The notes under the pieces were generated by a model. The model was given only the letters and a program-made list of their open reading frames with translations, was not told the DNA's origin and searched no databases. A stretch of 64,000 nucleotides of DNA from Escherichia virus TH22, in sequence record MT446396.1; one strand, 5' to 3'. The translations under genes were made by a program, and so were the position numbers. Below are positions 13,426 to 32,002 of the stretch, piece by piece; position 1 is the first letter of the stretch, and every line of letters starts with the position of its first letter.

Positions 13426-13449
13426 GGGGACCTTCGGGTCCCTTTTTTA
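13426..13449 (+). terminator. intrinsic terminator (GGGGACC-TTCG-GGTCCCC + T-run)
   Basis: Perfect GC hairpin followed by TTTTTT immediately after gene 32. Confidence 0.7.
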
Positions 13450-13462
13450 TTTTCAAAAAGTA

Positions 13463-13492
13463 GTGTACAAGTCCTTTGAGCTAAGGCATAAT
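13463..13492 (+). promoter_or_regulatory. early promoter (GTGTAC -35, N18, CATAAT -10) with conserved leader
   Basis: Member of a recurrent promoter cassette family in this window. Confidence 0.55.
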
Positions 13493-13530
13493 GATTCCAT
13501 CAACTACTGATAACAACTGAGGAAATAAAA

Positions 13531-29741: not shown

Positions 29742-29771
29742 TAATACATGACCAAACAACATGGATTAAAT

Positions 29772-30095
29772 ATGGAATTACCAATTAAAGCAGTAGGTGA
29801 ATATATTATTTTGGTTTCTGAGCCAAAGCAAGCCGGTGATGAAGAAACTACGGCATCAGGTATAGTTATCGGAAAACTCCATCAGGGTGAAATCCCGGAG
29901 ATGTGTGAAGTATTTTCGGTTGGTCCGGATGTTCCTGAAGGATTCTGCGAAGTAGGTGATTTGACTCCTCTTCCGGTTGGCAAGATTGCAAACGTTCCAC
30001 ATCCTCTGGTTGCACTGGGACTTAAGCAGGCTAAAGAAGTTAAGCAGAAATTTGTGACTTGTCATTATAAAGCTGTTCCTTGTCTTTATAAGTAA
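29772..30095 (+). CDS. 31: co-chaperonin gp31 (GroES analogue)
   Basis: Strong match to recalled T4 gp31 ([51 protein letters not shown]); start at second in-frame ATG (alternative 29748). Confidence 0.9.
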
Positions 30096-30104
30096 AATTA
30101 GCGT

Positions 30105-30112
30105 TATAAATA
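30105..30112 (+). promoter_or_regulatory. late promoter (TATAAATA) upstream of the rIII-like gene
   Basis: Exact TATAAATA in the 31 to rIII intergenic region. Confidence 0.5.
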
Positions 30113-30266: not shown

Positions 30267-30521
30267 ATGTCTTTAAACAAACAATTACAACACGCTCTCG
30301 AACTGCAACGCACTGCATGGAATAACGGTCACGAAAACTACGGCGCATCTATTGATGTTGAAGCCGAAGCACTGGAAATTCTGCAGTATTTCAAACATCT
30401 TAACCCGGTTCAAACCGACCTTCGCGCCGTGCTCGAAGCAAAAGATGAACTGAAATTTGCTAAGCCGCTGGCATCTGCTGCCCGTAAAGCTGTTCGCCAT
30501 TTTGTCGTAACCCTGAAGTAA
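30267..30521 (+). CDS. small cytoplasmic protein at the T4 rIII position (putative antiholin RIII)
   Basis: 84 aa from ATG with GAGG RBS; position between gene 31 and the 30.x island and size near T4 RIII (82 aa); sequence identity not verified. Confidence 0.5.
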   Translation: MSLNKQLQHALELQRTAWNNGHENYGASIDVEAEALEILQYFKHLNPVQTDLRAVLEAKDELKFAKPLASAARKAVRHFVVTLK

Positions 30522-30919
30522 GCTGTAGGTGATTCGCTACCTTAGTGCGGCTAGAAAATCGAGGAGCCGTCGAACCGTCTGATTAATGATTTGCGAATCA
30601 TTATAGTTTTAAGACCCCGGCAGTTTTACGGTGTACCTCTTGAATGTTATTCTTATAGCGGCAAGTGCATGCTACCCCGAGGTGATGGCCAATCGGGAGT
30701 ACGCCTCAAGGCCTATATATCCATCAGTATATATCTTATCCTCGAGAAATCGAACCCGGAACCTTTAAGCTAACGGTGTGCAACAGATAAGAGCTATAAG
30801 GTATGTTGACGAGGTTTATGGTTATCCTGTCGTTAAATATCCGAAACCTAATGTTCCCTTCGAGGGCTTGCGCAGGCAATGCCAATAAGTCCTGCATTCT
30901 ATTTTAAAGAGAATTTAAT

Positions 30920-31081
30920 ATGGCTAAGAAAGAAGTTAAAGTTGTTGATGGCTCCTCCAAACGCGCTGGTTACAAGCGTGCGTCCAACAAGCGAATCAAT
31001 CAGGTGACTGATAAACTTCAGGCTCGTGCTCGTGCGGTATTGCGTGCCGATGCAGCTTGCTTTGGTAAGCCGAAAGCATAA
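30920..31081 (+). CDS. small highly basic protein (53 aa), below the ORF-track cutoff
   Basis: MAKKEVKVVDGSSKRAGYKRASNKRINQVTDKLQARARAVLRADAACFGKPKA; AAGAGA RBS-like sequence upstream; followed directly by a terminator. Confidence 0.45.
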   Translation: MAKKEVKVVDGSSKRAGYKRASNKRINQVTDKLQARARAVLRADAACFGKPKA

Positions 31082-31086
31082 GTTCA

Positions 31087-31110
31087 GGGACTCTTCGGAG
31101 TCCCTTTTTT
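31087..31110 (+). terminator. intrinsic terminator (GGGACTC-TTCG-GAGTCCC + T-run)
   Basis: Perfect hairpin followed by TTTTTT. Confidence 0.7.
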
Positions 31111-31125
31111 ATTTTCCATAAAGGG

Positions 31126-31155
31126 GTTTACAACAGGGTTGGTCCAGTGCATAAT
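31126..31155 (+). promoter_or_regulatory. early promoter (GTTTAC, N18, CATAAT) with conserved leader
   Basis: Leader nearly identical to those at 14892 and 54686. Confidence 0.55.
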
Positions 31156-31196
31156 GATTCCATACTGAGTTACACAATAAAACACTGGAGAATAAA

Positions 31197-31565
31197 ATGA
31201 AAATCAATCTTAACTCATACATCAAAGGTAAAGACCACGACGGTTACAAAGCCATTGAAACTAAAGAGATGCAATGGCACTTGTATAAAGAACAGTTTGA
31301 ATTTGTTGGTTGCATGACTCCTGAAGGTCCTTCTGATGACTTCTCCTGGAAAATTATGGTAACAAACTTTTTTACTGGTGATACCTACGAACTGAAAACT
31401 TTGATTCTGGGTAAGATTCGTTGTAAGACCTATGAAGATGAAGAAACTGGTTATTCTGAAGATGTTACATGGTATCAAAATGGTCGCACCACTGCAGACC
31501 TTCTGATTGAAAAAATGAAAGCTAATGGTGAATTAAATTTAGATAATTGGATTAAAGTCGCATAA
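31197..31565 (+). CDS. hypothetical protein (122 aa)
   Basis: RBS GGAG; own promoter. Confidence 0.6.
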   Translation: MKINLNSYIKGKDHDGYKAIETKEMQWHLYKEQFEFVGCMTPEGPSDDFSWKIMVTNFFTGDTYELKTLILGKIRCKTYEDEETGYSEDVTWYQNGRTTADLLIEKMKANGELNLDNWIKVA

Positions 31566-31636
31566 AACAGTTTACTTTGGTACAGGTTATGATATTATAA
31601 ACCTGTACCAACAAATGAAAACAACTGGAGAATAAA

Positions 31637-32002
31637 ATGAACTACATCAACTTTGAACGCAAATATGTTTCTAACTGCATCCCAGGTTCTTCTGAAGTTA
31701 TTTGCTTGTGGAAACATCAAAACGGTTCAGTGTGTGAAATTGAACAATATATGACCCCTAACTACGTTTATATGCGATTTGAAAATGGTATCACTCTTTC
31801 AATCACGATGGAAGGTTCGGTATTCAAAATCGCATTAGATGATGATTTCCGTGAGCGTGATTTAGGGACTCATCCTTGCTGGAATGGTGTTAATCGCAAG
31901 CTTCTGGTTAAAACTTGGATTCGTCACATCCTGAGCAACAAAGCAAAACCTGAACACCTGGAAGCAATCTTTGATATAGTTCTTAATGAATTTGATATCT
32001 AA
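31637..32002 (+). CDS. hypothetical protein (121 aa)
   Basis: RBS GGAG with leader ctggagaataaaATG. Confidence 0.6.
   Translation: MNYINFERKYVSNCIPGSSEVICLWKHQNGSVCEIEQYMTPNYVYMRFENGITLSITMEGSVFKIALDDDFRERDLGTHPCWNGVNRKLLVKTWIRHILSNKAKPEHLEAIFDIVLNEFDI

Follow-up and report, generated by a model that had tools for sequence, protein, structure and literature searches.

A candidate structured RNA family in the spacer between rIII and gene 30.9 of T4-type phages

Introduction

What lies in the 398 nt that separate the lysis-inhibition gene rIII from gene 30.9 in Escherichia virus TH22? We analysed a 64,000-nt stretch of this phage (sequence record MT446396.1), hereafter the window, in which the rIII-30.9 spacer occupies positions 30522-30919 of the + strand; all coordinates below refer to this strand. 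A preliminary description, made from the sequence alone, had proposed a structured non-coding RNA, a regulatory leader controlling the small basic protein encoded downstream, or the decayed remains of deleted genes. Aligning the rIII-30.9 interval across T-even relatives revealed covariation, not decay. The first proposal is strongly supported for a 149-nt segment at 30653-30801, which we call the core, and the second is doubtful for that segment. We regard the core as a strong candidate for a structured RNA family of T4-type phages that has not been described before.

Results

Fold of the core RNA domain

The core is predicted to form a four-way junction of P1, P2/P3, P4 and P5, closed by P1 and comprising nine helices. 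We aligned 17 distinct copies with MAFFT and built a covariance model from the alignment, on which RNAalifold assigned 44 pairs, 15 of them compensatory (double changes). In 37 loci the covariance model found a full-length copy, always a single one per genome, with scores of 81-186 bits, and it found no copy in T4, S16 or RB43 or elsewhere in the 64-kb window. The largest covariation counts come from 30 distinct sequences with pairwise identity down to 47% (median 88%), in which 98.6% of the pair cells hold standard pairs. Both sides had changed in 32 of the 49 pairs, as against 5-9 when the 3' partners were slid by 1-3 columns, and none of 500 column shuffles reached the observed covariation values. 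Compensatory support was present in every helix except the 3-bp P2.

Helix P1 pairs 30655-30659 with 30793-30797, and all five pairs show double changes (UA/AU, AU/GC and others); in this phage it extends to CUUAUAGC/GCUAUAAG, pairing 30652-30659 with 30793-30800. P2, predicted between GGC (30660-30662) and GCC (30711-30713), is nearly invariant and has no covariation support, a single C-to-U change producing a U·G pair. P3 is a long hairpin in which GCUACCCCGAGG (30671-30682) faces CC AA UCGGG A GUA(C)GC (30689-30704). Its middle is the hairpin of CCCGA at 30676-30680 with TCGGG at 30693-30697 that the preliminary description had picked out. Eight of its ten outer pairs are compensatory, with CCCGA/UCGGG changing to CUCUA/UAGAG, CCCAA/UUGGG or CCGAU/AUCGG. 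In the P4 hairpin, UAUAUAU (30714-30720) and GUAUAUA (30727-30733) enclose the loop CCAUCA, and the stem recurs as UAUACA/UGUAUA, UAUUCA/UGAAUA, UACACA/UGUGUA and AUGUA/UACAU.

The P5 arm (30734-30792) encloses two further helices, P5a and P5b, which together account for the CTCGAG...TCGAACCCGG segment remarked on earlier. P5 itself pairs UCUUAUC (30734-30740) with GAUAAGA (30786-30792) and has double changes in five of seven pairs, including UUCUAUC/GAUAGAA in EcS1 and UUCGUG/CACGAA in JC03. P5a is a UCGA-GAAA-UCGA hairpin with a GNRA tetraloop (30742-30753); all four pairs covary (UCGA/UCGA, CCGA/UCGG, CAGA/UCUG, CUGA/UCAG), and the loop is GAAA or GUAA in most sequences. P5b joins ACCCG (30754-30758) to CGG·GU (30774-30779), with double changes in two of five pairs (U-A in Cronus, ACCUG/CAG in JC03). 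Two strands of the arm, GCUAACGGUG and GCAACAG, are invariant.

The loops of P3 (UGAUGG, 30683-30688) and P4 (CCAUCA, 30721-30726) are complementary and are predicted to form a kissing interaction of 6-7 bp. Seven versions occur across lineages, each perfectly complementary over 6-7 bp: UGAUGG/CCAUCA in this phage, CGAUGG/CCAUCG, CUAUGG/CCAUAG, CAAUGA/UCAUUG, CAAUGAU/GUCAUUG, UUGUAUU/AAUACAA and, in JC03, UGCAUU/AAUGCA. Even with some misalignment of the loops, four of the six kissing-loop columns show double changes.

Many pair cells hold U·G or G·U, which are A·C mismatches on the complement; since these pairs would be lost on the other strand, the + strand is the functional one. No reading frame stays open across the homologues, each being interrupted by stops within the 149 nt in some of them. 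Single-sequence folding, which the preliminary description had suggested, gave no comparable signal, with minimum-free-energy z scores against shuffles of -1.3 for the core and -0.15 for the whole spacer, neither more stable than the shuffled sequences. The case for the fold is thus comparative, not thermodynamic. On this comparative basis it is strongly supported that 30653-30801 is a self-contained, non-coding RNA domain folded on the + strand.

Conservation and distribution of the core

The core is 81-99% identical to its relatives, compared with 75-83% for rIII and 67-82% for gp31, and in every genus compared it is closer to the window copy than are the flanking genes. In a Klebsiella phage, identity is 91.9% for the core, 79.3% for rIII and 71.9% for gp31; the corresponding values in EcS1 are 81.0%, 75.1% and 73.2%. 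The ranking of core divergence roughly tracks that of the flanking genes, so that vertical descent under strong constraint fits better than recent transfer. Invariance is more frequent outside the helices: 27 of 51 unpaired positions are invariant, as against 26 of 98 paired ones, and the invariant strands include CGGCAAG-GCAUG and GCUAAC.GUG.GCAAC. Such an excess at unpaired positions is typical of RNAs with specific tertiary, ligand or protein contacts, not of simple stabilising hairpins. Judged from these comparisons, selection constrains the core more strongly than the genes beside it, although some lineages do without it.

A core of the Tevenvirinae type is present in about 400 GenBank phage records, mostly upstream of 30.9, from phages of Klebsiella, Escherichia, Enterobacter, Shigella, Yersinia, Salmonella, Citrobacter, Serratia, Erwinia and Raoultella. 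A divergent form occurs in 20 further records, comprising GAP161-like Pseudotevenvirus phages (GAP161, JC03 and others), phiEap-3 and Yersinia phage JC221, which brings the total to about 420 records of T4-like phages. In these 20 records the core follows the uvsY operon, and a strong terminator and the convergent uvsW lie 160-400 nt beyond it; in the GAP161-like phages and JC221, no same-strand gene is found downstream of the core. The core is cleanly missing from T4, T2, S16 and RB43, the last a relative of the GAP161-like phages that was checked at the same site.

Beyond these records, degenerate-pattern scans of IMG/VR and metagenomes matched only T4-like genomes, whole (about 144-179 kb) or fragmentary. 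No core turned up in GTDB genomes scanned with exact 21-mers, and BLAST of 5,426 E. coli genomes and of PLSDB plasmids returned nothing meaningful. Host origin or mimicry was rejected on these empty E. coli genome, plasmid and GTDB searches.

Two loci have unusual arrangements. In contig L043 (metagenome QZLZ01027750.1), an intact core lies beside a truncated 30.9; a hairpin of the spacer, C2a (described below), is fused to the middle of 30.9 with the 5' half of the gene deleted, a fusion that might be an assembly artefact of this 1.5-kb contig. In JC221, about 700 nt without a credible open reading frame (ORF; about 950-1640 of its locus) lie between the uvsY operon and the convergent uvsW. 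This stretch holds the core, hairpins resembling the spacer hairpins A1 and C2a, further hairpins and a terminator, and its 3' half is conserved in RB43-like phages. It may represent a longer, multi-domain non-coding RNA.

The core resides in a modular spacer

A spacer of 204-398 nt separates rIII from 30.9 in every T4-type phage or genus examined: 204 nt in S16, 244 in T4, 291 in PEi20, 317 in myPSH1140, 321 in EcS1, 332 in Cronus, 334 in PS2, about 338 in Klebsiella Jiaodavirus, 352 in JS98, 397 in SP18 and 398 here. BLAST with the gap alone matched some part of it in 998 phage records. The alignments form a mosaic of short conserved modules, with A1 and A2 on the 5' side and C1, C2a, C2b and a ribosome-binding-site hairpin on the 3' side, into which a block of ~150 nt is either inserted or cleanly missing. 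In T4, T2 and S16, the flanking modules abut directly. The order is A-block-C1-C2 in this phage and JS98, and C1-(A1)-block-C2 in Klebsiella phages, PEi20 and PS2. In Karamvirus and Cronus, the block begins 5-16 nt past the rIII stop codon, and in JC03 it likewise begins 5-16 nt past a stop codon.

The preliminary description was right about the ORF-poor gap itself, a 398-nt stretch that runs from the stop codon of rIII to the ATG opening a 53-aa ORF, and about the absence of a plausible gene there. Three ORFs can be read in the spacer (60 aa from TTG, 30591-30773; 34 aa from ATG, 30803-30907; and a 53-aa ORF on the minus strand), of which none matched a PHROG family, and every frame is interrupted in some homologue. 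The protein-coding reading was rejected, with PHROG, Pfam and NCBIfam searches of the spacer ORFs empty and no frame conserved. Some annotation pipelines nonetheless call the 60-aa and 34-aa ORFs, for example in the UPEC07 record; spurious small 'hypothetical protein' ORFs appear in the spacer in the records of UPEC07, EAWsc9 and Klebsiella phage 15882-6-1. Annotation errors among those records extend to gp30.9, given in one record as '1,4-alpha-glucan branching enzyme', and to gp31.1/31.2, given as 'tail fibers protein'.

Other parts of the description did not survive. The spacer is not unusually rich in G+C: at 43.7% against a window mean of 40.9% (standard deviation 3.5%), it falls at the 78th percentile of 398-nt windows, and the adjoining rIII gene, one of the flanks said to be poorer, has a higher G+C content. 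Nor does T4 have only tightly packed 30.x genes at this position, as had been stated; its 244-nt spacer carries the same flanking modules.

On the 5' side, module A1 (30534-30550) is a small hairpin with the stem UCGC/GCGG and the conserved loop UACCUUAGU. It is conserved in T4, S16, Klebsiella phages, PEi20 and JC221 (95.7% over 23 nt in the last), and its position relative to the core varies among genera. In the alignment, its stem changes from G-C to A-U in T4 and from C-G to U-A in a Klebsiella phage. The A1 loop UACCUUA (30538-30544) is complementary over 7 bp to UAAGGUA (30798-30804), just past the P1 stem. JS98 has neither sequence and other phages carry one alone; the complementarity is probably due to chance or specific to a lineage. 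Module A2b (30584-30603) reads as a hairpin, UAAUGAUU-UGCG-AAUCAUUA, with a compensatory variant, UAUCGAUU...AAUCGAUA, in contig L043.

On the 3' side, module C1 (30808-30850) is a GACG.../...UGUC hairpin with conserved GGUUAUCC and CGUUAAAUA and an AAACC tail. Roughly 45 nt long and without an Rfam match, C1 is present in all genera, before or after the core, including T4 (about 813-860 of its locus) and S16; from E. coli phages to those of Erwinia, Serratia and Edwardsiella, GGUUAUCC and CGUUAAAUA are invariant. Its stem shows compensatory changes, from A-U to G-C in one locus (L019) and also in a Klebsiella phage. Pairing of the C1 loop with its tail exceeded shuffles only in Karamvirus-type sequences (UUGUGAG/CUCACAA, UUAGUAG/CUACUAA), and in most lineages the complementarity was no higher than in shuffles; a loop-tail pseudoknot is possible but unproven.

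Module C2a (30856-30866) is the small hairpin CCCU-UCG-AGGG, followed by CUUGCG. The motif GUWCCCYUYGAGGGCUUG is kept in all Tevenvirinae examined, with a GCCU/AGGC variant in Cronus, and similar hairpins occur in RB43 (GUACCCCUUG(U)UGGG), JC221 (GUACCCUUUGGGG) and JC03. C2b (30872-30895) is a GCAGG...CCUGC hairpin, replaced at its site by ACUGG...CCAGU in S16 and by a different long hairpin, GGGAGC...GCUCCC, in other genera. Lastly, a weak hairpin, AUUCU...AGAAU (30896-30914), read directly from the sequence, covers the Shine-Dalgarno sequence (AAGAG) of 30.9; other genera have UCUCC...GGAAGA at this position, and the hairpin may have a role in translation. The structures of the 3' modules are only partly supported, since RNAalifold was run on close relatives with too little variation and did not resolve the C2b hairpin.

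As a leader controlling the small basic protein, the core finds no support: T4 and S16 have 30.9 without it. The 3' modules (C1, C2 and the Shine-Dalgarno hairpin), which are conserved universally, are better candidates for a true 30.9 leader. A1, A2, C1, C2 and the Shine-Dalgarno hairpin appear to constitute a separate set of small RNA modules, common to T4, which is more likely than the core to be the leader of 30.9.

Genes and transcription signals around the spacer

The source phage is of the T-even type, and the region is 100% identical in Escherichia phages TH55 and UPEC07 of the genus Gaprivervirus. Every gene around the locus lies on the + strand. Upstream is gp31 (29748-30095), followed by a T4-type late promoter motif, TATAAATA, read directly from the sequence at 30105-30112, where the preliminary description had placed it; from what is established about T4 late promoters, we take this motif to serve rIII, the gene downstream of it. 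The rIII product (30267-30521, stop codon 30519-30521) is a lysis-inhibition accessory protein of 84 aa from its ATG (phrog_1457, E = 2.4e-42), and the same gene is labelled rIII in the UPEC07, SP18 and JS98 records. We found no sigma-70-like promoter inside the spacer, where the preliminary description had likewise recognised no promoter motif, and no terminator, and because of this absence the spacer is predicted to be transcribed by read-through within the rIII-30.9 message.

The Lys/Arg-rich 53-aa ORF at 30920-31081, previously called unannotated, is gene 30.9, a conserved hypothetical (phrog_1427, i.e. PHROG 1427; E = 2.9e-26, full-length alignment). It is annotated at the same position after the rIII spacer in SP18, JS98, T4 and PEi20 and occupies the same position in S16. 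Searches of Pfam, NCBIfam and the PDB found no relatives of gp30.9. AlphaFold2, run on the single sequence, modelled one long helix (residues 12-48) after a basic N-terminus, with a mean predicted local distance difference test score (pLDDT) of 80.

Downstream of 30.9, the terminator noted earlier was confirmed as an 8-bp stem with a UUCG loop (31086-31105) followed by a T-run, the whole spanning 31086-31115. An early-type promoter for gene 30.8, TTTACA-17-CATAAT, with 10 of 12 consensus matches, follows at 31127-31155, so that 31086-31155 comprises a G+C-rich stem-loop, a T-run and then early-type -35 and -10 elements. This pair looks like the repeated cassettes of T4-type genomes, presumably the published 'PeSL' cassettes. 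In a search for repeats or mobile elements within the window, only this cassette had a second copy, a weak one of 74 nt, 77% identical, at 13427-13497. In SP18 (2457-2807 of its locus) and a few relatives, an extra gene, 30.6A, lies at this cassette between 30.9 and 30.8, and because of this insertion SP18-like phages give BLAST matches in two pieces.

Gene 30.8 (Pfam PF06019) starts at 31197. Its Shine-Dalgarno sequence, GGAGAAUAAAA (31187-31197), equals the published consensus of RegB/S1 targets (PMC1702504). Exact copies of GGAGAAUAAAA form the ribosome-binding sites of 30.8 (31187-31197) and 30.7 (31627-31637), and that of 30.9, AAGAG, differs from the consensus. Since its site is not of the RegB type, 30.9 is probably regulated differently from the neighbouring early genes.

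Comparison with known RNA families

No known family accounted for the core. An Infernal scan of Rfam 15, a check that the preliminary description had put forward, matched no family: the core alone gave no match at E <= 10 to any of 4227 covariance models, and the 2.5-kb surroundings, sub-parts and five homologous loci gave only chance-level scores of about 10-21 bits, far below gathering thresholds. As a positive control, the scan recovered all 8 T4 tRNAs. ARAGORN found 0 genes for tRNA or transfer-messenger RNA (tmRNA) in the whole window. With filters off, the core model scored nothing above 7 bits in the T4 tRNA-rnaC-rnaD region and had no match on the strand of those genes; homology to them was rejected, the best score on them being 2.3 bits on the wrong strand. 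The core RNA is not described anywhere in the literature that full-text searches, some of them with exact words of its sequence, brought up.

Some resemblances were considered and set aside. Short words shared with RNase P RNA are in excess, but the comparison was post hoc and the words are not collinear, and we treat the excess as chance. Module A1 was compared with type I-F CRISPR repeats, and the 5' part of the core with tmRNA PK1; both comparisons were made by eye, and the hairpins do not correspond.

Discussion

We propose that the core is an autonomously folding + strand RNA domain inside the rIII-30.9 read-through transcript, its P3 and P4 loops locked by the 6-7 bp kissing interaction and its P5 arm bearing a GNRA-capped hairpin. 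It would function at the RNA level by specifically recognising a protein, a second RNA or a small ligand, and might do so either within the mRNA or once processed into a stable RNA. To this reading, an autonomous recognition module, we assign a probability of roughly 0.5. Partner binding, possible action in trans and any benefit to the phage are inferred. The core would also be an accessory element independent of gene 30.9, because 30.9 and the 3' modules persist in T4 and S16 although the core is missing there, because no gene follows it in the GAP161-like phages and JC221, because module order varies among genera and because contig L043 retains it beside a truncated 30.9. It is probably not tied specifically to 30.9 as a leader.

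Several points weigh against this proposal. No promoter or terminator was found within the spacer, and hence a discrete RNA species is only conjectural. In most phages the core does lie upstream of 30.9, and a cis effect on that gene is possible. Fitting the 30-sequence alignment to the model biases it towards the structure; the MAFFT result is the unbiased check, with fewer sequences. Finally, the sequences are mostly close kin, and much of the covariation rests on roughly 8-10 divergent lineages.

The core could instead serve its own message in cis, its fold blocking RNase E scanning or 3' exonucleases, or directing processing, and thereby stabilising either the message ahead of it, that of rIII or of the uvsY operon, or that of 30.9 downstream. 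Pseudoknotted or kissing folds are good nuclease barriers, and the core always lies on the sense strand inside an operon, with no promoter of its own and, in Karamvirus, Cronus and JC03, just past a stop codon. RegB, RNase E and RNase G have established roles in shaping the mRNAs of T4 (PMC1702504, PMC9409239). A stabiliser, however, needs stable helices only, whereas the unpaired junction bases of the core are its most conserved part; the core is conserved above the genes it would protect, GAP161-like phages already have a strong terminator hairpin after it, and T4 and S16 manage the same genes without it. We therefore think this explanation unlikely, though it is the leading rival. That the core is a riboswitch aptamer for a metabolite or signalling nucleotide, controlling 30.9 and the genes downstream, is suggested by its P1-closed multi-helix junction, kissing loop and invariant junction nucleotides, an architecture that resembles purine or lysine riboswitch aptamers, and by its position upstream of 30.9 in about 400 records. 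Yet this aptamer-like fold has no adjacent conserved expression platform: depending on the genus, the core is followed by C1, C2a or some other hairpin, the 30.9 ATG lies 65-177 nt away and no terminator intervenes. With no same-strand gene downstream in GAP161-like phages and JC221, and no Rfam riboswitch family at E <= 10 on the core alone, a riboswitch seems improbable.

The core could also be a ribozyme of a new kind, self-cleaving or catalytic in some other way, by which the polycistronic transcript is processed. Between phage genes, self-cleaving ribozymes are often found, and several have multi-way junctions and loop-loop contacts; the core, too, has invariant junction strands and lies between cistrons or in a 3' untranslated region. 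It matched none of the known self-cleaving catalytic cores in Rfam 15 (hammerhead, twister, twister-sister, pistol, hatchet, hairpin, HDV, glmS, VS), however, and its 149 nt exceed most self-cleaving classes, which makes a ribozyme quite improbable. Clean presence and absence among close relatives (T4, T2 and S16 against other Tevenvirinae, RB43 against GAP161), two genomic loci and variable order relative to neighbouring modules would also suit a mobile DNA element, either a homing remnant or one resembling a miniature inverted-repeat transposable element, whose terminal inverted repeat mimics a stem. We give this very little credence. Each genome has one copy, with none elsewhere in the window or in E. 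coli genomes, plasmids or GTDB genomes; the P1 'repeat' changes sequence between lineages with complementarity kept; the internal helices and loop-loop contact covary, with G·U pairs that suit one strand only; core divergence roughly follows that of the flanking genes; and no target-site duplication was seen at the T4 junction. Decay of a 30.x or other gene, for which the short ORFs called by some pipelines (UPEC07, Klebsiella phage 15882-6-1) might speak, is already refuted: the region is better conserved than the flanking genes, no frame is conserved, each being interrupted in some homologue, the spacer ORFs match no PHROG or other protein family, and the helix substitutions are compensatory.

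A bolder reading, which we put forward only tentatively, is that T-even-type phages use a new functional class of RNA, of which the core is the first member. Such a class might be a new ribozyme, a sensor of a small molecule derived from the host or its defences, or a decoy RNA that binds and neutralises a host factor, for example an RNA-targeting defence protein or a protein of RNA metabolism. If true, it would explain the accessory pattern and the clean loss, including from all classical laboratory phages.

T4-type phages are the best-studied large lytic phages, yet this RNA had gone unnoticed; its absence from T4, T2 and RB43 is a plausible reason. Comparable folds elsewhere, with a four-way junction, kissing loop, GNRA tetraloop and invariant junctions, have proved to be riboswitches, ribozymes or RNAs with a dedicated protein partner. 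The hosts of the about 420 core-carrying phages also include Edwardsiella and Cronobacter, and many of these phages are candidates for phage therapy. The core is directly testable, as natural relatives with and without it exist and the element is precisely deletable. Recognising it also puts right current annotations, in which the stretch is either empty or occupied by spurious small ORFs.

Among the RNA structures of T4 itself, the mRNA leaders and operators (the gene 32 pseudoknot and the RegA and gp43 operators) are likewise intergenic and upstream of a small gene. C1, C2 and the Shine-Dalgarno hairpin may be of the same kind; the core exceeds them by far in size and intricacy, is dispensable in T4 and S16 and is not bound to one gene. 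The rnaC and rnaD products (species 1 and 2 RNAs, about 120-140 nt, function unknown) are also RNAs encoded by T-even phages, but they belong to the tRNA cluster and undergo processing along with its tRNAs, and T4 has them without having the core. E. coli rnpB, the RNase P RNA, shares the short words GUGCAACAGA, GAUGGCC, CAAGGCC and GAACCCGG with the core, more than in dinucleotide shuffles (P about 0.01-0.03, in a comparison chosen after the words had been seen); the matches are not collinear, the Rfam RNase P models are silent and BLAST of E. coli genomes is empty.

In architecture, the core resembles the purine and lysine riboswitch aptamers, with a P1-closed junction, two adjacent hairpins locked loop to loop and invariant junction bases; unlike them, it has no Rfam match and no conserved platform, and it occurs where no gene follows. 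A broader likeness is to the orphan complex-fold RNAs, the raiA motif, ROOL and GOLLD. The core has no sequence or structure match to these in Rfam 15 and is restricted to T4-like phages of Enterobacterales; compared with ROOL and GOLLD it is much smaller, and it is embedded in mRNA and not placed beside tRNAs. With all three it shares a covarying multi-helix fold, conserved junction nucleotides and a location in non-coding gaps, and, like ROOL and GOLLD, it is associated with phages.

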